Positions 29,515-64,000 of a stretch of 64,000 bases of DNA are shown in pieces. Origin of the DNA: Pseudomonadota bacterium (GTDB taxonomy: Bacteria; Pseudomonadota; Gammaproteobacteria; UBA12402). How positions within the stretch are numbered: position 1 is the stretch's first letter; each line of letters opens with the position of its first letter. The notes under the pieces are model-generated. The model had not been told where the DNA came from. It ran no database searches and saw only the letters and a program-made list of their open reading frames with translations. Made by a program: the position numbers and the translations under genes. Where the stretch lies: contig JBBTCW010000006.1 in NCBI GenBank assembly GCA_038043025.1, positions 26,710 through 90,709 of the forward strand, in the 5' to 3' direction.

Positions 29515-31227
29515 TTGAATATACTGTTTATTTTTCCGCTTAATGAGCCATATAATAGCATAGTAAATGCGACTCAAACGCCGTGGAAATCCAAATTAAG
29601 CGCATATAAAAACATAAAAAAACTAGATTGCGCCTATCCAACCGGATTATTGTCTATTGCGGCGTATGTTAAAAAAAGTATTCCGGATGTTAATATAAAG
29701 ATTTTAGACATTAATGCGGTGATGGTTCGTGTCGCACAGAGAAAAAATGAGTGCTCGGAGAGCTTTGACGAATATACACGTGAAGATTTGTTAAAAGAAG
29801 CTTTATCTAATCTTGATGGCTTTGCTCCAGATATTATCGGGATTTCTTTGTTGTTTTGTAGTAATTATCGGGATTTGGGCGCGCTGGCATTTTTTTTGCG
29901 AAAAGCATATCAAGAAAGTTTGATTGTTTGTGGTGGGCACCTAGCCTCGGCGAGCTATGATCGTATATATGAGGATGATTTTGAAATTGATGCAATTGTA
30001 TTTGGTGAGGGTGAGCGGCCGTTGCTTGAACTGACACAAGCCAGGCTAGAGGAGAAGCAAGTACAATATTTAGAGGAAAGCCCCTCATGGGTGACAAAAG
30101 AAAAAGCGCAGTCGAAATCGAAGTTTATTCCTGAGAATAAAGTGATTGTTGATTTGGATGAGATTCCTCCTTTTGATTTAAGTATGTTGATATTTTCTGA
30201 TGTCTATTTTAATTCGACAAGATATTTTTTTGTCATTGACTCTCAATCCAATCACAATGAAATGTTTATATTTTCAACACGCGGGTGTCCTTATAAATGT
30301 GTATTTTGTGCGTCTCAAAATGTACACGGCCATAAAGTAAGATCTTATAGTGTAGATAGGATAAAACAAGATATTTTGTATTATCATGAAAAATATAATA
30401 TCGATAGATTTATTTTTTATGATGACCATTTTTTAATTTATAAAAAAAGAGCTATCGAGATATTAAATTTCATTTCACAAAAACATCTTATTGCCGAAGT
30501 TCCTACGCCAGCTTTTTTTTCGATTAATAAAGAAACCGCTGCAGCCATGCGGCAAGCGGGTATAAAAGAAGTGAACATTACGATTGAAAGCGGCAATAGT
30601 GATACGTTAAAAAATATTATACATAAACCGGGGGATTTAAAGAGGGCAGAGGAGGCAGTCGATTGTCTTCATCGAGAAGGCATTGTGGTTGTTTCGAATA
30701 TTTTGATTGGGTTGCCGGGCGAAACAGCGCAATCGATTGATAAGGGATTGGCATATTTAATGACAACCGAGATCGATTGGTTTCAATGTTTTGTTGTTGC
30801 GCCGCTTCCCGGGAGTGAATTATATAAAATCTGCGAAGAAAATGATTATTTGGTTAGGAATTATGATTTATCCACAATGGATTACAAAAAATGTTTAATT
30901 AAAACTAAGGATTTTGATCCAACATATATTGAAAACAAAGCATATGAGATGAATTTAATCCTAAACTTTGTCAATAATTACAATATGCGACAAGGAAAAT
31001 ATGATTTGGCATTGCGACTTTTTGAAAGAGTGATTAATACTGTAATAGATACACATGCCTTTGCATATTATTATGCGGCCATATGTTGTAAACAATTAAG
31101 TTTAGACGATAAATATCTTGTGTATAAAAGGAAATATGAGGAAATGATTGAAAGATTTATATTTTGGAACGCTTATGCTGACAAGTTTAAATTAAAACAA
31201 TTAAGTTCTATTGATGTTTTGATGTGA
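29515..31227 (+). CDS. Cobalamin-binding (class B) radical SAM protein
   Basis: N-terminal B12-binding-like domain followed by STRGCPYKCVFCAS (CX3CX2C... wait: CPYKCVFC). 570 aa. Confidence 0.65.
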   Translation: MNILFIFPLNEPYNSIVNATQTPWKSKLSAYKNIKKLDCAYPTGLLSIAAYVKKSIPDVNIKILDINAVMVRVAQRKNECSESFDEYTREDLLKEALSNLDGFAPDIIGISLLFCSNYRDLGALAFFLRKAYQESLIVCGGHLASASYDRIYEDDFEIDAIVFGEGERPLLELTQARLEEKQVQYLEESPSWVTKEKAQSKSKFIPENKVIVDLDEIPPFDLSMLIFSDVYFNSTRYFFVIDSQSNHNEMFIFSTRGCPYKCVFCASQNVHGHKVRSYSVDRIKQDILYYHEKYNIDRFIFYDDHFLIYKKRAIEILNFISQKHLIAEVPTPAFFSINKETAAAMRQAGIKEVNITIESGNSDTLKNIIHKPGDLKRAEEAVDCLHREGIVVVSNILIGLPGETAQSIDKGLAYLMTTEIDWFQCFVVAPLPGSELYKICEENDYLVRNYDLSTMDYKKCLIKTKDFDPTYIENKAYEMNLILNFVNNYNMRQGKYDLALRLFERVINTVIDTHAFAYYYAAICCKQLSLDDKYLVYKRKYEEMIERFIFWNAYADKFKLKQLSSIDVLM

Positions 31228-31269: not shown

Positions 31270-32820
31270 ATGCGAATATTGTTTATTAGGAATTCTTGTA
31301 CGCTCATGTCGCATTCTCAGCTAGGCTACGGTATGGGCATCGTGGCGACGATAGCGCATGCGGCCGGACATGAGGTAAAGGCAATAGACAATAATACATT
31401 ATACAAATTTTATAAGAACAAAGATTTTTTTAAGATAATAAAATCATATAAACCAGATATTATTGCCTATGGGCTAACATTGCATAATGCTTATGAGACC
31501 TATCAACAAATTTCAAAACTTAAAATTAAGTTTAAAAATATAACCATTATTGCTGGTGGGATACATATGAGGCATTGTTTTGACGAGGCTTTGCGTCATG
31601 GTGTTGATGTGGTGGTGAATAGGGAGGGGGAAAAAGTTATTGTGCCTCTCTTAGAGCATTTGGAACGGCACGGGGAGGATTATAAAAATGATCTCGATTT
31701 GATTGCTGGAGTTTCCTTTGTGCGCCAGGATGGGCGGTTTCATTTTTCCAAAGAATATCCTGCCGTAGAAAACTTAGATGATGTTCCTGTGGTAAATTAC
31801 GAGTTGTTTAATATTCAGGATTTTATAAAAACGGGGACAGAGGCGGGATTGTTTTATTTTACGGGACAGAGGGGCTGTCCATTTAAATGCACGTTTTGTT
31901 CTGATGCAGTTCATAATTTAGATAAAAGATGTTCTTCTGCGGACTGGTTGTTTAAGAACGTTCGTTATTTGCATGAGAAATATCAAGTGAGTTATTTGCT
32001 TATTGCAGATAATAATTTTACCTTTCCTCGGAAGCGGGCGGTTGAGTTTTGTAGAAAAATGATCGATTCTGGGTTAAGTAAAAAATTGACATTTTCTTGT
32101 CAAACAAACACACGATTTCCATTGGATGAGGAGCTTGTTTGTTTGATGAGGGAGGCAGGGTTCTGTAGAATTAATTTTGGGTTAGAGCGCCTAACGACTT
32201 ATTCATTGCAAAAGATAAACAAAATGCAACCTTTTCAAGGGGTGCACGATGCGTTGACGTTGGTTTCTAAGCATAATATAGACCCGTCAATTTTCATGAT
32301 GATTGGTTTTCCTTTTGAAACTGAAGAGTTATTAGAGCAAGAGAAAGAATTGTTCTTAGATCTCAAAAAATATACGCATCGATTGTTTCTTTCAGTATTA
32401 TGTCCTATGCCTGGCACTATGTATTATGATGGCTCGCCAAAAATTAAAGAGTGGTATTTAAATCGAGATGCATATTTAATGTTTCGGGCATATTTTACGA
32501 ACGTGTTAGATATGCATACATTTAACACTATTGAGAGAAACTTTTTTAACCTATCTAAGCCTGTTCAGCACGCGCTTAAGAATTATTATTTGCTATTTAA
32601 AAAGATAACCCACGGCTCTGTTTTTAATAAAAAAACGCCGCTATTGTCATTATGTTTAAACTTAGATTTTTTGGTTGCTAAAATATCTCAAGCTTGCTTT
32701 TATTTTTCCCCCTCGCTTGAGTTCTTTATTTTCAATCATATAAAATCCTTGAGATATTATGCGGGTAATTATTTTCTTTCCGGCTATATGTTAAAAAAGA
32801 ATCTGGTAGCTGACGAATAA
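31270..32820 (+). CDS. Cobalamin-binding (class B) radical SAM protein
   Basis: GQRGCPFKCTFCSD radical SAM motif after an N-terminal B12-binding-like domain. Paralogous in layout to the upstream gene. Confidence 0.65.
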   Translation: MRILFIRNSCTLMSHSQLGYGMGIVATIAHAAGHEVKAIDNNTLYKFYKNKDFFKIIKSYKPDIIAYGLTLHNAYETYQQISKLKIKFKNITIIAGGIHMRHCFDEALRHGVDVVVNREGEKVIVPLLEHLERHGEDYKNDLDLIAGVSFVRQDGRFHFSKEYPAVENLDDVPVVNYELFNIQDFIKTGTEAGLFYFTGQRGCPFKCTFCSDAVHNLDKRCSSADWLFKNVRYLHEKYQVSYLLIADNNFTFPRKRAVEFCRKMIDSGLSKKLTFSCQTNTRFPLDEELVCLMREAGFCRINFGLERLTTYSLQKINKMQPFQGVHDALTLVSKHNIDPSIFMMIGFPFETEELLEQEKELFLDLKKYTHRLFLSVLCPMPGTMYYDGSPKIKEWYLNRDAYLMFRAYFTNVLDMHTFNTIERNFFNLSKPVQHALKNYYLLFKKITHGSVFNKKTPLLSLCLNLDFLVAKISQACFYFSPSLEFFIFNHIKSLRYYAGNYFLSGYMLKKNLVADE

Positions 32821-49452: not shown

Positions 49453-49531
49453 GCGAAAGTCGCTATTAATTGCCTGATTAAAGGTGGCTTTGCCTGGTGA
49501 ATTATCCCAAATAGATAGAGGCAGAAAGATA

Positions 49532-50950
49532 ATGAAACTAACAGAAATCGAAACTCTGGCAAAAAAAGGCGAGTCTGATGCTTTAGAATTTAAAAAATCT
49601 ACTGCGCAGCTGAAAAGTGCGGGTGAAACACTGTGTGCATTTTTGAATAATCATGGCGGGATAATTTTCATTGGCGTTAATGATCATGGTGCAATCATTG
49701 GGCAACAAGTAACAGAGCATACAAAACGAGAAATCGGTAGCATTTTAGCTAAAGTAGCTCCAGAACATAATGTCGATGTTCTATATGTTGATATTAATAA
49801 AACTAAACAGGTCATCGTGTTGCGAGCAACGCCTCACATAGATTTACAGCCATATACATTTGATAGCAAAGCGTATGTTCGCGTTGAATCAAGCACCTAT
49901 CCTATGTCTCGAGATCAATATCAAAGAATGAGTTTAAACTATATGCAACAGCACCGTAGCTGGGAGAATGGGATTATAAAAGATGCTTCAATAGAGGATT
50001 TAGATGCTGAAGAAATTATGAGGACAATAACTGAAGGAATCGCTAATAAAAGAATACCTGCTGATCAAGCGGCCAGCAGTCCTGAAAGGGTGTTAAAACG
50101 ACTTGGGCTGCTCAAGAATAACCAGATAACCAATGCGGCCATTGTATTATTTGCCAAAGAGCCAACCCAGCGGCTTCATCAATGCTCTATTCGTTTAGCC
50201 CGATTTAGAGGGTTAGATAAATCAGAATTTGTGGATAGCAAGGTAGTAGATGGCAATGCTTTTACTTTAATTAATGCTGCCATGTCTTTTGCTGATTTAT
50301 ACTTGCCCGTCAGCAGTAAGTTTGGCTCAGGAAAAATCGAAAGAATTGATGAGCCATTATTTCCGATAGATGCGTTAAGAGAGGTGTTTGCTAATGCGGT
50401 TGGCCATAGAGACTATGCTATGCATACCGCGACGCTCAGTTTTGCGATTTATGAAAATCGACTTGAAATTTGGTCGCCGGGTTTACCGCCCGATGGGGTG
50501 ACTTTCGAGAATATTAAAACCCTGCACGAATCCATACCCAGAAACCGACTGATCACAAAAGTACTTTATTATCGCAAACTTTTTGAGTCATGGGGAAGGG
50601 GAATTCAAAAAATTATAACCCTATGCACGGAAGCCGGCCATCCAGAGCCGGAATTTGTTGAAAGAACCGGTGGGGTATGTGTAATTTTAAAGTCAAAACA
50701 ATCGATAGGCGCGCCAATAATATATGATAAGCAAACAGAAGAAAGAATTAAATTAACTGATAGACAAAAAGAAATTTTATCTATTATTAAGGAAAAGCGT
50801 CAAGCGACATTGCCAGAAATAATTCAAGCTTTAACAGATAAAGCAGCCAAACGCACAGTGCAACGCGAATTAGCTAGACTTAAAGATTTTGGTCTGATTT
50901 CATTGAGGGGAGGAACAAAGGGATCTGTATGGGAAATAATTGCGCCATAA
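49532..50950 (+). CDS. AlbA_2 (Schlafen-like) DNA-binding domain + HATPase_c_4 + C-terminal wHTH protein (putative regulator/ATPase)
   Basis: N-terminus KKGESDALEFKKS...AFLNNHGGIIFIGVNDHG is typical of AlbA_2 'divergent AAA' proteins. C-terminal HTH-like segment. Start at MKLTEIE (RBS GAAAGA). Confidence 0.5.
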   Translation: MKLTEIETLAKKGESDALEFKKSTAQLKSAGETLCAFLNNHGGIIFIGVNDHGAIIGQQVTEHTKREIGSILAKVAPEHNVDVLYVDINKTKQVIVLRATPHIDLQPYTFDSKAYVRVESSTYPMSRDQYQRMSLNYMQQHRSWENGIIKDASIEDLDAEEIMRTITEGIANKRIPADQAASSPERVLKRLGLLKNNQITNAAIVLFAKEPTQRLHQCSIRLARFRGLDKSEFVDSKVVDGNAFTLINAAMSFADLYLPVSSKFGSGKIERIDEPLFPIDALREVFANAVGHRDYAMHTATLSFAIYENRLEIWSPGLPPDGVTFENIKTLHESIPRNRLITKVLYYRKLFESWGRGIQKIITLCTEAGHPEPEFVERTGGVCVILKSKQSIGAPIIYDKQTEERIKLTDRQKEILSIIKEKRQATLPEIIQALTDKAAKRTVQRELARLKDFGLISLRGGTKGSVWEIIAP

Positions 50951-55454: not shown

Positions 55455-56921
55455 GTGAGTATAGCCGGTTTAGATTGTTTATTGGTTTCGCCGTCGACGG
55501 TGTGTCGAGATTCTGGCAATATGTGGAAAGAGATCAACTCGAATTTTCCTCCTTTGGGATTAGCCTCTTTGGCTGGCTATGTGAGAGAGAAAGGTTTTTC
55601 GGTTAAAATCATTGACGGCAATATTCAATGCCCCTTTGAAGAAGATTTCCATCATTTTTTTAAAGAGAATTTTTGCGATAAATTTTCAGATATAAAATTA
55701 ATTGGTTTTACGACGATCACTTGCACCATTAAAAAAGCGTTTAAAATGGCTAAAATGTGCAGGCAGCTTTATCCAAATGCATTAATTGTTTTTGGCGGGG
55801 TACATGCGACGTTTATGACGGATGAAGTTATAAATAATGAATGTGTGGATGTGGTGGTTAAAGGTGAAGGCGAATTAACCATGCATGATTTGCTTTCGGG
55901 CAAGGCATTATCGGACATTCCAGGCATTTGCTATAAGAAACAAGATAAAGTGTTTATGACAAAGCCTCGTGAGCGAATTATTGACTTAGATGCATTGCCG
56001 ATGCCAGCATATGATCTTTTGCCGATTGGGCAATATAGACCCGCAAAAGGTTCTTATAAGCGGTTACCTGCGATGAGTATGATGACCTCTAGGGGCTGTC
56101 CGGGTAGATGTACTTTTTGTAGCAAGACGTTGGGAAATAAATTATTTTTTAAATCAGCTAAACAGATCGTCAAGGAATTAGAATACTTAATAGCTCACTA
56201 TAAGATAAAAGAGATATTGTTTTATGATGATACTTTTACGGTCAACAAAAAAAATGTCATGGAGTTTTGTGATCTTATCATTCAAAAAAACATCGACGTT
56301 ACTTGGACATGTTTTGCGAGAGTCGATTTTATTACCTTAGAAATGTTGAAAAAGATGAAGCGTGCGGGTTGCCATCAAGTCATGTACGGGGTTGAAAACA
56401 TTGATGAGGAAGTGCGGAAAAACATCAAAAAACACATTAATGTTGAACAAGTTGTTCATGCGACACAATGGACTAAACAGGTTGGCATAGAGTGTCGTTT
56501 AGCTTTTATGATAGGGAATCCCGGGGATACCAAAGAAATTATTTTGAAAAACATAGAGTTTATAAATAAGCTCGATCCGGATATTTTGGTGGTCAATATC
56601 ACAACTCCTTTCCCTGGAACTGAAATGTTTGCTTGGGCAAAAGCAAAGGGATTAATTTTAACCTATGACTGGGATGATTACACGTTAGCAAAACCGGTGA
56701 TGCGCTTAGAGAATCTGACAGAGCAAGAGATTCACTCCTTATATAATCTCATGTACAAGCGATTTTATTTGAGACCACGGTTTATATTGAAAAAGGCGTT
56801 ATCTATTAGAAATATAAATGATTTAGGTATATTACTGGGTGGTTTTAAGGCTGTGTTGAGTTTTTTAGGTGGTTCAAAAAAATGTATCAAAGCTGCAGAT
56901 AAAGAGGTTATTTCTAGCTGA
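55455..56921 (+). CDS. Cobalamin-binding (class B) radical SAM protein
   Basis: B12-binding-like N-terminus and SRGCPGRCTFCSK. GTG start after an AAAGGAG RBS. Confidence 0.6.
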   Translation: MSIAGLDCLLVSPSTVCRDSGNMWKEINSNFPPLGLASLAGYVREKGFSVKIIDGNIQCPFEEDFHHFFKENFCDKFSDIKLIGFTTITCTIKKAFKMAKMCRQLYPNALIVFGGVHATFMTDEVINNECVDVVVKGEGELTMHDLLSGKALSDIPGICYKKQDKVFMTKPRERIIDLDALPMPAYDLLPIGQYRPAKGSYKRLPAMSMMTSRGCPGRCTFCSKTLGNKLFFKSAKQIVKELEYLIAHYKIKEILFYDDTFTVNKKNVMEFCDLIIQKNIDVTWTCFARVDFITLEMLKKMKRAGCHQVMYGVENIDEEVRKNIKKHINVEQVVHATQWTKQVGIECRLAFMIGNPGDTKEIILKNIEFINKLDPDILVVNITTPFPGTEMFAWAKAKGLILTYDWDDYTLAKPVMRLENLTEQEIHSLYNLMYKRFYLRPRFILKKALSIRNINDLGILLGGFKAVLSFLGGSKKCIKAADKEVISS

Positions 56922-58009
56922 TGAATAAATATAAATTAACTGTCATTGTGCCCTGTTATAATGAAGAGAAAACCCTGGCGTTTTGTCTTCAGCGAGTATT
57001 AGAAATACAAAGCGACCTGATTTCATTAGAAATTATTATTGTCGATGATTGTTCATCTGATCACAGTATGCGGGTTGCCAAATCACTGTCTGAAAAACAT
57101 CAAGAAATCGTTGTTGTTTCGCATTCAAAAAATCAAGGTAAAGGTGCGGCAATTAGAACGGGGATGCAACATGCTTCAGGGGATTTTGTAGCTGTGCAAG
57201 ATGCTGATCTTGAATATAACCCGATAGAATTGATCAAACTTTTGCAGCCGATCATTAATGATGTTGCAGATGTGGTGTTAGGATCTCGGTTTGTGACGAG
57301 TCAAGAACATCGCGTTTTATATTTTTGGCATAGTCTGGGTAATAAATTTTTAACGTTGCTTTCTAATATGTTCACCGACTTAACTCTTAGTGATATGGAA
57401 ACTTGTTACAAGGTTTTTCGGCGTGATAAAATTCAAGATATTATCATCGAAGAAAATCGTTTTGGATTCGAGCCAGAAATTGTTGCTAAAATAGCACAGA
57501 AAAAATTGCGTATTTATGAAATGGGTATTTCTTATCATGGGCGTACCTATGAAGAAGGGAAGAAGATTGGTTGGAAAGACGGGTTGCGAGCTTTTTATTG
57601 CATTTTTCATTATAACGCTCCACAGTTGCCGGCACCCATGCAGTTTTTTATATATTTTTTTATTGGTGGTTTTTCAGCAATTATCAATATTGCAACGTTC
57701 TCTTTTTTATATGCGATGGGGAGGGGCATTATTTCTTCAGCAATAATATCTTTTTCTATTTCTGCGATAGTGAATTATATCTTATGTGTCAAATGGTTGT
57801 TTAGACACCAGTCAAGATGGCGCGCTTGTTTAGAAATATTATTCTACATCATCTTTGTTGCTCTGATCGGTGTTATAGATGTATCTCTTACCCTTTCATT
57901 GTCAAAAACCTTGCGTCCCGTTTTTGCTATAACAATCGCGAGCACAGTGGTATTTGTTGTGAACTTTTTCACAAGAAAATATTTTATTTTTGGCGAAAAA
58001 AAGAGTTAA
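56921..58009 (+). CDS. Polyprenyl-phosphate glycosyltransferase (GT2, DPM1/ArnC-like) fused to a GtrA-like TM domain
   Basis: LTVIVPCYNEEKTL...IIVDDCSSD, VQDADLE. C-terminal 100 aa hydrophobic (FFIGGFSAIINIATFSFLYAMG). Confidence 0.65.
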   Translation: MNKYKLTVIVPCYNEEKTLAFCLQRVLEIQSDLISLEIIIVDDCSSDHSMRVAKSLSEKHQEIVVVSHSKNQGKGAAIRTGMQHASGDFVAVQDADLEYNPIELIKLLQPIINDVADVVLGSRFVTSQEHRVLYFWHSLGNKFLTLLSNMFTDLTLSDMETCYKVFRRDKIQDIIIEENRFGFEPEIVAKIAQKKLRIYEMGISYHGRTYEEGKKIGWKDGLRAFYCIFHYNAPQLPAPMQFFIYFFIGGFSAIINIATFSFLYAMGRGIISSAIISFSISAIVNYILCVKWLFRHQSRWRACLEILFYIIFVALIGVIDVSLTLSLSKTLRPVFAITIASTVVFVVNFFTRKYFIFGEKKS

Positions 58010-59811
58010 TGGATTAATTTTATCAGATAAAATGTTTGTTGTTGAACCGTATTTCGTATTCGCGAAAAAGATAAGTTTTCAGTATGCGCAAAAATATGTT
58101 TCGCATAATGTTCTTTGATTAAATTATCCAATAGCTTGTCCATGTTTGCACCGCCTGGAATATTGCTCCAATGTTTTTCATAAAAGATATAGTTAATGTT
58201 GAAATTTTTTAAAATTTTAACGAGCTGTTTTGTGTTCGTTATATCTTGCCAATCAATTAATCCCGAGAGATTGGGTTCTGCACTTAAATAAGGACGATCA
58301 AGATAATAAGTTTGACCGGCGCGTAAGATGCATAAAATTTTGGCGTTTTTCGCCGTATGTTGTTTGATCCATTGATAATCACCATAATTCCACGTGTATT
58401 GATGGTATTGATCGAGATTGGGATGGAAATAATATTTGATATAAAAAATAGAATAATAAGGCGCTAAGACTATAAAATAGCTCAGTGTGATGACTAAAAT
58501 TACATTACAGACTAATTTTTCTGATTTGTTTTGCAAGTTATCATAATATTTAATGGCAATCAATAATCCAATGGGTAGCGCGTAGAAAGCAAAACGGATA
58601 TAAAAAGTCGGTTCGACGATCCACCAAAGCATAAAGTAAGTAATTAACCCTAATCGTATTTGTAGTTTTTTGATCCGTGTAAATATTGCGCCAGCGATAA
58701 TTAAGATCCATAATGTGACCGGAATTAAGGGGTCGAGCAGAAATGCTTTAATATCAACAATAATGCTATTTATATTGTGATGACCGCTCACATCACTTGT
58801 GAATTTTTGGGCCATAATTTGTATGCTGTGAGAAGATGATCCAAAAATATTTTGCGCGAGCGGCCAAACAGGATTGCCCAAATTAATATAGTTTCTGATA
58901 TAGCAAGGCGATGCGATAAGCGTCATCAGTATCAGCGCATTGATGAGGGGTGTCTTTTTTTCTTTTTCTAATTGTGTATAAGCCAGTATGATATACCAAG
59001 GGATAAACAAGATGCTTTGGTATTTTACGCCTAGAGCAAAGCCAAGCGCAGCAAATGCGATATAGATACTGCTTTTTTTATGCGAGTCGGTTGTTAAAAA
59101 CAGAAAACCGATCAAACTATAAAATATAACTATCCAGTCATTGGTGACAATATGTGCTTCGTGATAAGCGAGCGGCGTTAGAAATAGGATAATAAAAAAT
59201 AATCGCGTATGCTTTAGGTTAACTCGAGCTGCTAAGTATTGTAGAATGAGCAGTGAAAATAAAAAATATAAACAAACGGCCAATTCCACACCTACTCCGC
59301 CAAATAAAATAAAGGAAGGCAAAAACATCAGATGAAAAAAAATCGGGAAGTTATAATGTATATAGGGTCTGAAGACAAAGCCGTGATTTAATACGATATC
59401 TTTCATTTGAGCTAAATGGTAACGCATGGCATCAGCGGATCGCTCTGGCGTGTATGCCAATAAAATAATCCATACAATTAAAAAAATGAGTGTGCCTATA
59501 AAATATACGCTCCACCGATCCTGTTTGATTAAATGTTCTCTTAAAAAGCAGCCAATGGATTTTAGTGTCGTCCATAATGTTTTTATATAAAATGATGCGA
59601 TAATCAGCGAGAGCAGGGTGAAACCTAAAATATATCCGGGGGTTGCGAGCATCCATTCTGTCACGAAGAACAGATAAAATGCGGTGATGATAGAGCCAAA
59701 CAGAAAGCCGGCAATGAGCTTTTGAAAGGGATCGCATTTTAATCGTGCCGCGAGCGGCATTCCCAACCCACAGATGGTTAAAAAATATACTAAATTAAAA
59801 ATGAGTGCCAT
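58006..59811 (-). CDS. GT-C-fold membrane glycosyltransferase (ArnT/PMT-like, GT39/GT83-type)
   Basis: 601 aa, more than 10 TM helices, convergent with and adjacent to the polyprenyl-P GT2 gene. ArnT/PMT-like topology with a periplasmic C-terminal domain. Confidence 0.5.
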   Translation of the reverse strand: MALIFNLVYFLTICGLGMPLAARLKCDPFQKLIAGFLFGSIITAFYLFFVTEWMLATPGYILGFTLLSLIIASFYIKTLWTTLKSIGCFLREHLIKQDRWSVYFIGTLIFLIVWIILLAYTPERSADAMRYHLAQMKDIVLNHGFVFRPYIHYNFPIFFHLMFLPSFILFGGVGVELAVCLYFLFSLLILQYLAARVNLKHTRLFFIILFLTPLAYHEAHIVTNDWIVIFYSLIGFLFLTTDSHKKSSIYIAFAALGFALGVKYQSILFIPWYIILAYTQLEKEKKTPLINALILMTLIASPCYIRNYINLGNPVWPLAQNIFGSSSHSIQIMAQKFTSDVSGHHNINSIIVDIKAFLLDPLIPVTLWILIIAGAIFTRIKKLQIRLGLITYFMLWWIVEPTFYIRFAFYALPIGLLIAIKYYDNLQNKSEKLVCNVILVITLSYFIVLAPYYSIFYIKYYFHPNLDQYHQYTWNYGDYQWIKQHTAKNAKILCILRAGQTYYLDRPYLSAEPNLSGLIDWQDITNTKQLVKILKNFNINYIFYEKHWSNIPGGANMDKLLDNLIKEHYAKHIFAHTENLSFSRIRNTVQQQTFYLIKLIH

Positions 59812-59871
59812 AGATCTGCTCTTTTTTGAGAGAGGTTAGAATAGCGTAAATGAGGTTGATTTTCTATATAT

Positions 59872-59883
59872 CTTGATATCAAG
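59872..59883. promoter_or_regulatory. Perfect 12-bp palindrome CTTGATATCAAG in divergent promoter region
   Basis: Seen directly. Lies between the divergently transcribed genes ending at 59811 (-) and starting at 60005 (+). Confidence 0.3.
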
Positions 59884-60004
59884 TAGGAGGTGGATCACAT
59901 AGAACTGGTTCTGTAAAAAGCAAAAAGAATGTTTACTTCTCCAAAACAGCGGGCTATACTGGTTCAGTGGAATCGTTTTTTGTAATTGACAGAACAGAGA
60001 CGTT

Positions 60005-61432
60005 ATGACGAAATTCATTGGGCGCGAGAAAGAATTGAGCCTTTTAAACCGATTTTCTAAAAAGCGATCAGCGTCTTTTCTGATTGTGCGAGGTCGTCGC
60101 AGAATCGGAAAAAGTCGTCTAATTGAGGAATTTGCAAAACCATATAAGTTTTATACCTTTTCAGGTATTGTTCCGACAGAAAAAACCACAGCACAATCAC
60201 AGCGAGACGAATTCGCAAGTCAACTCAGTCAGCAAGACTTTCCAAAAGTGAAAGCGCAGGACTGGAATGATTTGTTTTGGCTTTTGGCGGATAAGGTGAA
60301 AAAGGGTAAGGTCGTTATTTTGTTGGATGAAATATCTTGGATGGGCGACAAAGATCCTGATTTTTTGGGCAAACTCAAAAATGTTTGGGAGCAGCATTTT
60401 AAAAAAAACAACCAGCTCATTCTCATTGTCTGTGGATCGGCATCATCCTGGATAGAAAAAAATGTTTTAAGTAGCACAGGGTTTGTGGGTCGCATTTCGT
60501 TTGTATTAACCTTAGAGGAGTTGCCGTTAAAGGATTGTCAAGATTTTTGGCGTCAAGCAGCTGCACATATTTCTGCAATGGAAAAATTAAAGATGTTATC
60601 GGTGACCGGTGGAGTACCACGGTATTTAGAGGAAATTGACCCGGCATTAAGCGCAGAAGCCAATATTAAAAATATGTGTTTTACCAAGGGTGCTTTTTTA
60701 GTTGACGAATTTGAGAGAATTTTTTCAAATCTTTTTTTAAGAGACAGCGAGGCCTATAAAAAAATAATAGAGGTGTTGGCGACGGGGAGTAAAGAATTCA
60801 AGGAAGTGAGCCAATTGCTGGGTACTGATATGTCGGGTAGAACATCAGATTATCTGGACGAGCTAATATTGGCAGGATTTGTCAACCGAGATTATACGTG
60901 GCATTTAAAAGATGGCAAAGATGCCAAGCTGAGCAAATTCAGGCTGAGGGATAACTATTTGCGTTTCTATTTAAAATATATCCAAAAATATAAAACAAAA
61001 ATAGAACGAAATGCATTTGATTTTAAGTCTCTTTACGCTTTGCCCGGCTGGGATGCAATCATTGCGTTACAGTTTGAGAATTTAGTTTTAAACAATCGGC
61101 ATTTTTTATGGGAAAAACTTTCAATCAGATCCGAAGATATTTTGTCAGAAAATCCATTTTTTCAACATAAAACAGCCACACAATTGGGTTGCCAAATAGA
61201 TTATTTAATTCAAACACGTTTTGGCACGGCGTATATTTGTGAAATCAAATTTTCTAAAAACAAAATCACTGAACGCGTCATAGAGGAAGTGCAAGAAAAG
61301 ATCTTAAGGTTAAAACGCCCTAAAGGCATGTCGTGTCGATCGGTGTTGATTCACGTGAATGGTGTTGAAAATAATTTAATTGAACAGGAATATTTTTCAG
61401 ATATCATTGATTTTAGCGAAATCCTGAAATAA
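60005..61432 (+). CDS. AAA+ ATPase (Arch_ATPase-type) with DUF234-like C-terminal domain
   Basis: MTKFIGREKELSLLNRF...LIVRGRRRIGKSRLIEEF is typical of the archaeal-type ATPase/DUF234 family. Confidence 0.55.
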   Translation: MTKFIGREKELSLLNRFSKKRSASFLIVRGRRRIGKSRLIEEFAKPYKFYTFSGIVPTEKTTAQSQRDEFASQLSQQDFPKVKAQDWNDLFWLLADKVKKGKVVILLDEISWMGDKDPDFLGKLKNVWEQHFKKNNQLILIVCGSASSWIEKNVLSSTGFVGRISFVLTLEELPLKDCQDFWRQAAAHISAMEKLKMLSVTGGVPRYLEEIDPALSAEANIKNMCFTKGAFLVDEFERIFSNLFLRDSEAYKKIIEVLATGSKEFKEVSQLLGTDMSGRTSDYLDELILAGFVNRDYTWHLKDGKDAKLSKFRLRDNYLRFYLKYIQKYKTKIERNAFDFKSLYALPGWDAIIALQFENLVLNNRHFLWEKLSIRSEDILSENPFFQHKTATQLGCQIDYLIQTRFGTAYICEIKFSKNKITERVIEEVQEKILRLKRPKGMSCRSVLIHVNGVENNLIEQEYFSDIIDFSEILK

Positions 61433-61446
61433 AAATTCACTTATTC

Positions 61447-61461
61447 TGTGACAGACCCTTA
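61447..61461. repeat. Left arm of a 15-bp inverted repeat (TGTGACAGACCCTTA) flanking the 61600-62541 gene
   Basis: Exact reverse complement (TAAGGGTCTGTCACA) occurs at 62545-62559. Confidence 0.6.
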
Positions 61462-61599
61462 GCAAGCTGCAGGGCATTATCCGATTCTGTTCAAAACTTA
61501 AGCAATTAAAAATTTTAGTCTTAGCTTGTTCGGAGCTCGCGTTTTAAGAATAGATTCTGATAATATGTCCCATTGTTTTTGACCAAAGGTTGTTTATTT

Positions 61600-62541
61600 A
61601 TGAGGCGAATTTTAGTAACAGGTGGCGCAGGTTTTTTAGGTTCTCATTTATGTCGGCGTCTGTTGACGGAAGGTCATGATGTGTTATGTGTCGATAATTT
61701 TTATACCGGCACAAGAAATAATATTTTGCCTTTGCTATCCAATCCACATTTTGAAGTATTGCGACATAATATAACCGAGCCGCTTAAAGTAGAAGTGGAC
61801 GAGATTTATAATTTAGCGTCACCCGCTTCGCCGGTGCATTATCAAAATCGTCCGGTGCAAACAACGATTACGAATGTGCATGGATCGATTAATGTTTTAG
61901 ATTTAGCGGTGCGTTTAGGGAAGGTAAAAGTTTTTCAAGCGTCGACCAGTGAGGTTTATGGTGATCCTGCCATTCACCCGCAAGTCGAAGATTATTGGGG
62001 AAATGTAAACCCGATTGGTCCGCGCGCTTGTTATGACGAAGGCAAGCGGTGCGCTGAAACATTATTTTTTGATTATTGGCGGCAATATGAATTGCCCATC
62101 AAAGTGGCTCGTATTTTTAATACCTACGGCCCCAATATGTGTTTAAATGATGGGCGTGTGGTATCTAATTTTATTGTGCAAGCTTTAAAAGGCGAGCCGA
62201 TTACGATTTACGGTGATGGATCGCAAACGCGCTCTTTTTGTTACGTCGATGATTTGATTGAGGGCTTTATTAGAATGATGGCAACGGATCGCGATGTTAC
62301 CGGTCCGATTAATTTGGGAAATCCGAATGAAATTACGATTAAAGAGCTAGCGCAGAAAATCATAGAAATGACCGGTGCCAAATCGCAATTAATTTGTAAG
62401 TCGTTGCCCGCTGATGATCCAAAACAGCGCAAGCCCGACATTACAAAGGCCAAACATGTTTTAAATTGGGCGCCCAAGGTTTCGATTGAGGATGGACTCA
62501 CAAAAACCATTCATTATTTTGAAAAAATATTGGAGATGTAG
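61600..62541 (+). CDS. UDP-glucuronate decarboxylase-like SDR (UDP-xylose synthase/ArnA C-terminal family)
   Basis: [22 protein letters not shown]...[10 protein letters not shown] (the DNFFTG-type motif of UXS enzymes). YDEGKR YxxxK. Start at the ATG at 61600. Confidence 0.7.
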
Positions 62542-62544
62542 ATT

Positions 62545-62559
62545 AAGGGTCTGTCACAT
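62545..62559. repeat. Right arm of the 15-bp inverted repeat
   Basis: Reverse complement of 61447-61461. Confidence 0.6.
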
Positions 62560-62695
62560 GGGATAGATTGTAGTAGCCCAGCCCAACCTACGTGCATTTC
62601 GAATCCCGCCAAAGGCGTGACCGTTCTTTTTTTTCTGATAATCATTTCGAACGCCATCCCTGGGATTGTCCTCTGAGCTGAGGATCATATAAAGT

Positions 62696-62738
62696 ATCCG
62701 TGTGATTTTATCCTTTAATATATAAAATTACACGGATA
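62696..62738. promoter_or_regulatory. Imperfect 16-bp inverted repeat (ATCCGTGTGATTTTAT...ATAAAATTACACGGAT) upstream of the ygiQ-like gene
   Basis: Arms match at 15 of 16 positions with an 11-nt AT-rich spacer. Located 36 nt upstream of the ATG at 62774. Candidate operator or terminator. Confidence 0.35.
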
Positions 62739-62773
62739 ATGACAGTCCACGGTCTTTCCCGTAAACTTCCGGT

Positions 62774-64000
62774 ATGACTAAATTATTTTCCTATCGACCT
62801 TATTGGGCGAAGCGGTTTGGCGTTGCGCCGGAATTGCCGATGTCGCGTGCGGAAATGGAAAGTTTAGGCTGGGACAGTTGCGATATCATTATTGTGACGG
62901 GTGATGCGTATGTGGATCATCCGAGTTTTGGGATGGCGCTTATTGGTCGGCTTCTTGAAGCGCAAGGCTTTCGTGTGGGCATTATTAGCCAGCCGGATTG
63001 GCAAAGCGCTTCGCCGTTTCAAATATTAGGTGAACCGAATTTATTTTTTGGCATTACATCCGGCAATATGGATTCGATGGTGAATCACTATACGGCCGAT
63101 CGCAAAGTGCGTTCGGATGATGCCTATACGCCAAATGCAGAACCGCATAAACGTCCTGATCGTGCTGTATTAGTTTATTCACAACGTTGTCGAGAAGCAT
63201 ACCCAAAAACACCGATTATTATTGGTGGCATGGAAAGCTCATTGCGTCGCGCTGCGCATTATGATTATTGGTCGGACAAAATGCGCCGCTCAATTTTGAT
63301 CGATTCAAAAGCGGATATGTTGATTTATGGAAATGCAGAGCGTGCGATCGTAGCGATTGCGCATCGACTAGGAAAAAAAGAAAACATTGCGGATATCACA
63401 GATTTGCGTGGCACGGTTGTGATTAAAAAAGAGTTGAGCGGTGACGCCGTTTCATTGCCCTCATTTGAAAAAGTAAAAGCATCGCCGTTGTTATATGCGG
63501 AATCAGTGCGTGCACTGCAATTAGAAACTAATCCGGGCAATGCAAAATCTCTCGTGCAGCAGCATGGCGATCGATTTGTTTGGATGAATCCACCGCCATT
63601 GCCGTTAGAGACGCCAGAGCTCGATGCGCTTTATGCGCTGCCTTATACACGTCGACCACATTCTTCGTATGGTGATGCCAATATTCCGGCATATGAAATG
63701 ATTCGGTTTTCGATTAATATTATGCGTGGGTGTTTCGGAGGATGTACGTTCTGCTCGATTGCCGCGCACGAGGGACGTATTATTCAAAGCCGTTCGGAAG
63801 AATCGGTGTTGCATGAAATCGAAGACATTCGCGATAAAACGCCAGGTTTTACCGGTATTATTTCTGATCTGGGCGGTCCCACCGCTAATATGTATCGATT
63901 AAAATGTAAAGATCCTAAAATCGAATCCCTCTGTCGACGACTTTCTTGTATTTATCCGAAGCTGTGTAAAAACATGAATACGGATCATGGTCCGCTGATT
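62774..64000 (+). CDS. ygiQ: YgiQ-family (UPF0313) radical SAM protein, 3' end cut by the window edge
   Basis: Open frame from the ATG at 62774 to the window end. Translation [53 protein letters not shown] and the later [13 protein letters not shown] are typical of YgiQ. Confidence 0.65.

Follow-up and report, generated by a model that had tools for sequence, protein, structure and literature searches.

Perfect inverted repeats around a UDP-glucuronate decarboxylase-like gene are probably decayed ISAzo13-family transposon ends

The window, the whole 64-kb stretch of DNA that was analysed, comes from an uncultured groundwater gammaproteobacterium and includes the edge of a cluster for surface-polysaccharide biosynthesis. 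At this edge lies a single gene resembling UDP-glucuronate decarboxylase (UXS), with an AAA ATPase gene upstream, ygiQ downstream (from 62776) and a short inverted repeat on either side. Profile matches of the UXS protein to PF01370 and PF16363 (E ~1e-52), together with thousands of homologues at 70-75% identity, many of which are named UDP-glucuronate decarboxylase, point to a UDP-glucuronate decarboxylase of the extended SDR type as the gene product. The features of the locus are given below, where L088 and L097 are the loci of the two closest UXS relatives (97% and 92% identical, respectively).

59900-61432, forward strand: inserted single-gene module with a PF01637 AAA ATPase (CDS 60005-61432) and ~105 bp conserved upstream of it; absent from the 97% relative
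61436-61461, forward strand: left arm with its sub-terminal bases, matching the consensus of a truncated right end of an ISAzo13-family element, interior pointing left to the ATPase gene
61436-61446, forward strand: sub-terminal part of the left element end, TTCACTTATTC
61447-61458, forward strand: 12-nt core of the terminal inverted repeat (TIR) in the left arm, TGTGACAGACCC
61459-61461, forward strand: target-duplication triplet of the left arm, TTA
61485-61599, forward strand: conserved UXS 5' region, common with L097 from 61485 and with L088 from 61551
61600-62541, forward strand: UXS, UDP-glucuronate decarboxylase-like extended SDR, 313 aa (Pfam Epimerase, GDP_Man_Dehyd)
62544-62558, forward strand: right arm, with a TAA triplet (62544-62546) and the 12-nt TIR core GGGTCTGTCACA (62547-62558), read as a left end
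62568-62595, forward strand: degenerate REP-like palindromic element TTGTAGTAGCCCAGCCCAACCTACGTGC, at the junction where a downstream operon was lost

The left arm, TGTGACAGACCCTTA at 61447-61461 on the forward strand, and the right arm, its exact reverse complement TAAGGGTCTGTCACA at 62544-62558, enclose one gene, UXS (61600-62541). They pair over exactly 15 bp and no further, as the bases on either side differ. The end of the left arm is separated from the UXS ATG at 61600 by 139 bp, and the right arm starts 3 bp past the stop codon (62539-62541). The sequence-only reading that drew attention to this locus had reported such a perfect 15-bp repeat around a UXS-like gene, and its sequence, coordinates and both spacings were borne out. 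No further copies of the 15-mer were found in the window and the next 10 kb with up to 3-4 mismatches allowed, nor were further ends or partner ends found there using the 12-mer core with up to 2 mismatches. The ~74 kb of source genome thus covered contain two copies, the two arms. Perfect inverted repeats of at least 15 bp within 2 kb occur twice in the window against 0.27-0.40 expected from shuffling, and on these statistics alone the pair is unremarkable. The other such repeat (29646-29660 / 31381-31395, ATTATTGTCTATTGC / GCAATAGACAATAAT) is probably due to chance, as both of its arms are within long ORFs.

The identity of the repeat emerged from an exact-match scan of JGI metagenome contigs with the 15-mer, which returned at least 120 loci with one copy each. 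About 36 of the loci listed were conserved on one side only, reading ...TTATT[T/C]-TGTGACAGACCCTTA followed by variable, unrelated DNA, which is the signature of an element terminus. When an inverted partner end was sought on the conserved side among the loci listed, at least 15 complete elements were found, comprising 12 MITEs of 97-272 bp and three insertion sequences of 1293-1294 bp (L138, L150 and L183), whose termini are identical to the 12-nt core. The terminal inverted repeat of the family is GGGTCTGTCACA at one end and TGTGACAGACCC at the other, and both ends read GGGTCTGTCACA[A/G]AA[T/C]AA from the outside inwards. TTA was present directly outside both ends in 13/15 complete elements among the matches listed, indicating a 3-bp target-site duplication. 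The ~1.3-kb copies encode a protein of 403-404 aa that scored 594 bits on NF033519 (ISAzo13 family transposase; NCBIfam cut-off 200 bits) and 484 bits on PF07592. For ISAzo13 and its eukaryotic relative Zator, 3-bp duplications have been reported (PMC10045372). The same architecture is seen in an annotated ISAzo13 copy on the Mesorhizobium huakuii plasmid pMHa, whose transposase is 62% identical and whose ends read TAA-GGACACGTCGATAAAT...ATTATCGACACGTCC-TAA, with GG... termini, a sub-terminal ATAAAT and a TAA duplication. The GG... terminus, the A-rich sub-terminal ATAA motif and the 3-bp T(T/A)A duplication are thus common to both. To judge by these comparisons, the 15-mer consists of the outermost 12 nt of an ISAzo13-family TIR plus the 3-nt T(T/A)A target triplet, and the two arms correspond to the terminal 12 bp of such insertion sequences (an ISfinder family with NF033519 / PF07592 transposases, prokaryotic relatives of Zator). 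Because both arms are the terminus of a known transposable-element family, their pairing is not a matter of chance.

The IS/MITE family that has GGGTCTGTCACA as its terminus and makes a TTA duplication is widespread across metagenomes. Among the loci with the ISAzo13-type terminus (L105-L224), MITE subfamilies of 97-106, 145-179 and 222-272 bp were seen in very different metagenomes. As in other MITEs, which are non-autonomous deletion derivatives of insertion sequences (Correia, Nezha and RUP-type elements, for example), the same termini here bound TTA-flanked elements of 97-272 bp. The sequence-only reading had proposed that a common repeat unrelated to the presence of the gene would argue against its favoured cassette, and in spirit this is what the 15-mer has proved to be, a common transposon terminus across metagenomes.

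We then considered how the two tips are placed relative to UXS. The left arm, read from the outside inwards, is TAA-GGGTCTGTCACAGAATAAGTGAA; it matches the family consensus over 18-23 nt and is identical over 24 nt to the element end in L205. The ATPase stop codon lies 3 nt before the start of this remnant at 61436. The right arm reads TAA-GGGTCTGTCACA-TGGGAT and has kept the 12-nt core alone, since the TGGGAT that follows the core mismatches the sub-terminal RAAYAA of the family. The cores of both arms are identical to the ends of L138, L150 and L183, and both arms qualify as ISAzo13 termini. The TTA and TAA triplets adjoin the arms, and each arm is a solo end without a duplicated pair; TAA, as found at the right arm, is the minority state for left ends (2/15 complete elements among the matches listed). 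The outer (GGG) ends of both tips face UXS and the interiors point away, giving the order right end of one remnant, UXS, left end of another. With the GGG and the 3-bp triplet of both tips turned toward UXS, the gene lies outside the elements and not inside one.

The arms do not delimit an intact IS or MITE of any family, as they face outwards and no partner ends within 2 mismatches of the core were found in the window and the next 10 kb. Neither a transposase gene nor an intact family copy was found in the 64-kb window and 10 kb beyond, and activity of the family in this genome is therefore unproven. Unlike an ISAzo13 insertion sequence, the window lacks both a transposase gene and a pair of ends facing inwards, and contains two truncated tips (~23 nt and 12 nt) that face outwards. 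It also differs from a MITE locus: no complete MITE is present in the window, and the 1.1 kb enclosed by the arms consists of ordinary resident DNA rather than the interior of a MITE. The left arm could nevertheless be the remainder of a MITE. The earlier suggestion of a MITE was close, in that the repeats come from a transposable element with MITE forms.

To place the gene in context, UXS was compared with its relatives. The searched collection contained only two close relatives of the UXS protein, P0002 at 97% identity (Gammaproteobacteria bacterium RIFCSPHIGHO2_02_FULL_42_13, loci L088-L096) and P0003 at 92% (locus L097), the next best being 75% identical. Both orthologues are 317 aa long, and the window UXS is 4 codons shorter through a premature TAG. 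In the 97% relative the upstream order is the same as in the window (epimerase, UDP-glucose dehydrogenase, asparagine synthase, a 605-aa membrane protein gene), and UXS directly follows the membrane-protein gene. Its UXS stop codon overlaps the ATG of a 715-aa ADH/GFO gene, from which a long operon continues with heparinase-like, GT4, WecA-like and nucleotidyltransferase genes and more; the same 3' overlap of the UXS stop with the next ATG is found in L097. In both relatives, UXS lies in this polysaccharide locus as the leading gene of an operon. The 15-mer is absent from both L088 and L097. Comparison of related strains had been suggested as a check for presence or absence of the bracketed gene, and it is the repeats that are absent from the 97% and 92% relatives, UXS being present in both. 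The comparison indicates that UXS is a resident of this locus and not cargo.

The exact UXS protein was found on 11 groundwater metagenome contigs (Hainich and others), one of 1.76 Mb. The population contigs are 99.8-100% identical to the window over 59000-63990, with the arrangement ATPase - UXS - YgiQ throughout. No inversion and no presence/absence variants were detected among 8-11 contigs from independent samples, which at the level of assemblies show one orientation and one arrangement. Together with the orientation of both ends, whose outer termini face the gene, the 97% relative with the gene in the same locus without repeats, and the lack of an adjacent UXS at any of the 120 other 15-mer loci listed, this argues against the mobilised single-gene cassette that the repeats had first called to mind. 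Within the conserved UXS 5' region, a conserved extended -10-like sequence, TGATAATAT, is located at ~61558-61566, and the left arm is ~95 nt upstream of this promoter-like block, which, to judge by its conservation and its match to the consensus, may serve as the UXS promoter.

Both edges of the conserved UXS block are sites of lineage-specific rearrangement. On the left, nucleotide homology with L088 covers 58057-59867 and resumes at 61551-62542, and homology with L097 covers 61485-62538. The ~1.68 kb of window DNA missing from L088 on the upstream side of UXS is mostly the ATPase module. ATPase homologues at 78-88% identity have unrelated surroundings, such as fis or a plasmid-like region with ParA/TraG, and no conserved 3' flank. 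The left arm lies within a 52-bp stretch (61433-61484) that is common to neither the ATPase homologues nor L097. The ATPase gene with its ~105 bp of upstream sequence behaves like a roaming single-gene module, and a perfect 12-bp palindrome, CTTGATATCAAG, is present at its left junction (59872-59883). We considered the ATPase as element cargo bounded by the left arm and rejected it: the left boundary (59860-59910) is unlike an element end, with a score of 5 that is equalled by 75% of shuffles, and the homologues elsewhere are without the terminus. Further differences from L088 were noted within the cluster, namely an extra B12-binding radical SAM gene (55455-56921), an extra gene at 49484-50950 and a GT2-GtrA glycosyltransferase gene (56921-58009) that is on the opposite strand relative to L088 and ~72% identical. 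The difference over 55455-58009 is a further case of rearrangement or replacement within this cluster.

On the right, homology with L088 and L097 extends no further than the UXS stop codon; at this point these loci have GATG-TCGACA/GCTTTA-GTCACATGA and the window reads GATG-TAGATTAAGGGTCT-GTCACATGG. Compared with those of L088 and L097, the UXS 3' end has a single indel, which coincides with the right arm: the window has 14 nt there, including the premature TAG, against 6 nt. The last 6 nt of the right arm, GTCACA, are also present in the relatives at the UXS stop and next-gene ATG. Neither the window nor the next 10 kb contains the operon found downstream of UXS in the relatives; the right arm is followed by the REP-like element, a 17-bp hairpin and then ygiQ. 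Copies of the REP-like family are found at L081 15258-15297, L088 6957-6986 and L097 478-521. This family, TTGTTGGGC-loop-GCCCAACCTACGTRC, is found repeatedly between genes in this lineage of gammaproteobacteria and is separate from the 15-mer. A 20-nt stretch after the right arm looks like what is left of the next gene, an ambiguous assignment given its overlap with the REP-like element. A tRNA 3' end at this position was also considered and dropped, as tRNA and Rfam scans of the window were empty and the sequence is that of the REP-like element. A search with YgiQ gave no close relative with usable context, the 92% identical P0242 included.

Two further observations concern the DNA on this side. 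A strong hairpin at 62695-62738 (TATCCGTGTGATTTTAT / ATAAAATTACACGGATA, 17-nt arms, 94% complementary, 10-nt loop) is located ~40 nt upstream of ygiQ; it has no Rfam match and could be an operator or a leader structure. Downstream of ygiQ, ~4-7 kb past the right end of the window (L081 15499-18738), are an HTH/RelE toxin-antitoxin-like pair and an IS630-family (DDE_3) transposase gene, suggesting that mobile DNA is generally abundant in the flank of the polysaccharide cluster.

We consider it likely, at a probability of about 0.8, that the two arms are decayed solo ends of ISAzo13-family transposons at two rearrangement junctions. The arms sit in window-specific DNA at both edges of the conserved UXS block, as this reading would have it. 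ISAzo13-family elements would have come to both sides of a resident UXS at the edge of the polysaccharide-biosynthesis cluster, one upstream of the UXS promoter region and another in the last UXS codons. Both would later have been truncated from the interior side. On the left, the ATPase module would thereby have come to adjoin 18-23 nt of element end; on the right, the 12-nt core would have survived beside a junction at which the ancestral operon gave way to the REP-like element and ygiQ. The deletions that eroded the elements may also account for the arrival of the ATPase module to the left of UXS and for the loss of the operon to its right. We infer this order of events, and likewise the way in which the right arm shrank to 12 nt. 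The perfect 15-bp complementarity of the arms would follow from their being two ends of one family, with near-identical termini and a near-palindromic target triplet. As the tips point away from UXS, the gene is not part of a transposable unit delimited by them, and no function has been demonstrated for them.

At the right arm, the last 6 nt (GTCACA) are ancestral and only the core is left, so that a simple second insertion would need a coincidence or a microhomology-driven event. One option is that a second element inserted at T(T/A)A and was later lost by deletion or near-precise excision, with the repeat's GTCACA and the ancestral GTCACA beside it as end points. Solo IS ends and near-precise excision scars at IS-associated deletions are classic for Tn10 and Tn5. 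The right junction resembles such scars in having a short inverted-repeat fragment beside a deletion junction and microhomology (GTCACA) at the boundary; it differs in that the event here is deduced and not observed, and in that no intact donor copy is identified.

The same features allow a different origin of the right arm, in which only the left arm is a real insertion and the right arm arose by templated copying, through template switching or filler synthesis. A nascent TGTGAC end, the complement of the ancestral GTCACA, would have mispaired with the TGTGAC of the left end 1.1 kb away, copied AGACCCTTA and returned, leaving an 8-nt insertion, a perfect 15-bp inverted repeat and a disrupted frame at the UXS 3' end. 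GTCACA is indeed ancestral at that position in both relatives. The window differs from them by exactly +8 nt (14 versus 6), so that a change of 1 nt into 9 copied nt suffices without a further indel. The TAA of the right arm is the exact complement of the left-arm TTA, when independent left ends mostly have TTA (13/15 among the matches listed), and the right arm is without any sub-terminal RAAYAA motif. On the other hand, a distance of 1.1 kb is long for template switches, which normally have a short range, copying must have stopped exactly at the boundary between element and duplication, and no intermediate genome is available. We therefore regard templated copying as a serious but clearly less probable alternative. 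Slightly less probable again is the more specific proposal that the right arm is a long-range (1.1 kb) template switch on 6-nt microhomology and not an insertion relic, which would mean that transposon termini can template the reshaping of neighbouring genes without transposition. If that were true, a single event would have produced the perfect inverted repeat, stopped UXS prematurely and uncoupled it from the operon downstream. In a weaker variant, the outward-facing ends might still be bound by a transposase supplied in trans and might have driven the loss of the downstream polysaccharide operon.

An origin of UXS as cargo of a composite transposon, past or present, with the arms as the surviving inner ends of two full copies, is highly improbable. 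The geometry of right end, gene and left end would fit the inner ends of direct IS copies, and the conserved UXS block common with L097 (61485-62542) is bounded within 24 nt by the arms. However, the 97% relative has UXS in the same place, beside the same membrane-protein and sugar-nucleotide genes, without the element, and UXS is translationally coupled to the downstream operon in both relatives, which implies that the single-gene state was derived by loss and not by capture. Outer ends and transposase genes are absent from the window and the next 10 kb, and UXS is beside the terminus at none of the other loci listed. A single gene bracketed by repeats recalls composite transposons and integron gene cassettes, but the locus departs from both: complete flanking IS copies are lacking and UXS is syntenic with relatives that have no repeats, and by inspection the arms contain no attC-type site (GTTRRRY core), nor is there an integrase among the neighbouring genes with Pfam matches.

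It is, if anything, more doubtful still that the arms function as a pair, either as a long-range RNA stem in an ATPase-UXS read-through transcript (affecting stability or processing) or as recombination sites of an invertible segment. For a single RNA carrying the two arms, a 15-bp helix is predicted in both the MFE and the centroid structure, and a search for intrinsic terminators found none separating UXS from the ATPase gene, nor any flanking UXS. The long-range stem-loop proposed by the sequence-only reading is thus thermodynamically possible, but the left arm is located upstream of the conserved promoter-like block, both relatives have the same gene without the arms, and Rfam gave no match. 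As for inversion, there is no recombinase gene nearby, only one orientation was seen in all assemblies (8-11 contigs), and the neighbours are an ATPase, a membrane protein and YgiQ, so that the locus does not behave as an inverton or shufflon. The sequence is, moreover, fully explained as a transposon terminus. Least credible is pure chance without shared origin, since, although one perfect repeat of at least 15 bp within 2 kb occurs in about 25-30% of shuffled 64-kb windows and the second pair at 29646/31395 is evidently a coding-region example, the left arm matches a transposon end over 23 nt and a chance second copy of the 12-15-mer within 2 kb has p ~1e-5 to 5e-4 (8000 positions / 4^15 or 4^12).

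With the arms read as decayed transposon ends, the finding is one of ordinary genome scarring in a rearrangement-prone polysaccharide locus. For annotation, it shows that a tidy gene between perfect inverted repeats was here a transposon scar and not a mobile cassette, and that an exact-match metagenome scan with one short repeat can expose the identity of that repeat. For the organism, it records how the edge of a surface-polysaccharide cluster was remodelled in association with transposons: an ATPase gene was gained, the operon downstream of UXS was lost and UXS was truncated by 4 codons. Such remodelling is the expected behaviour of surface-polysaccharide loci.
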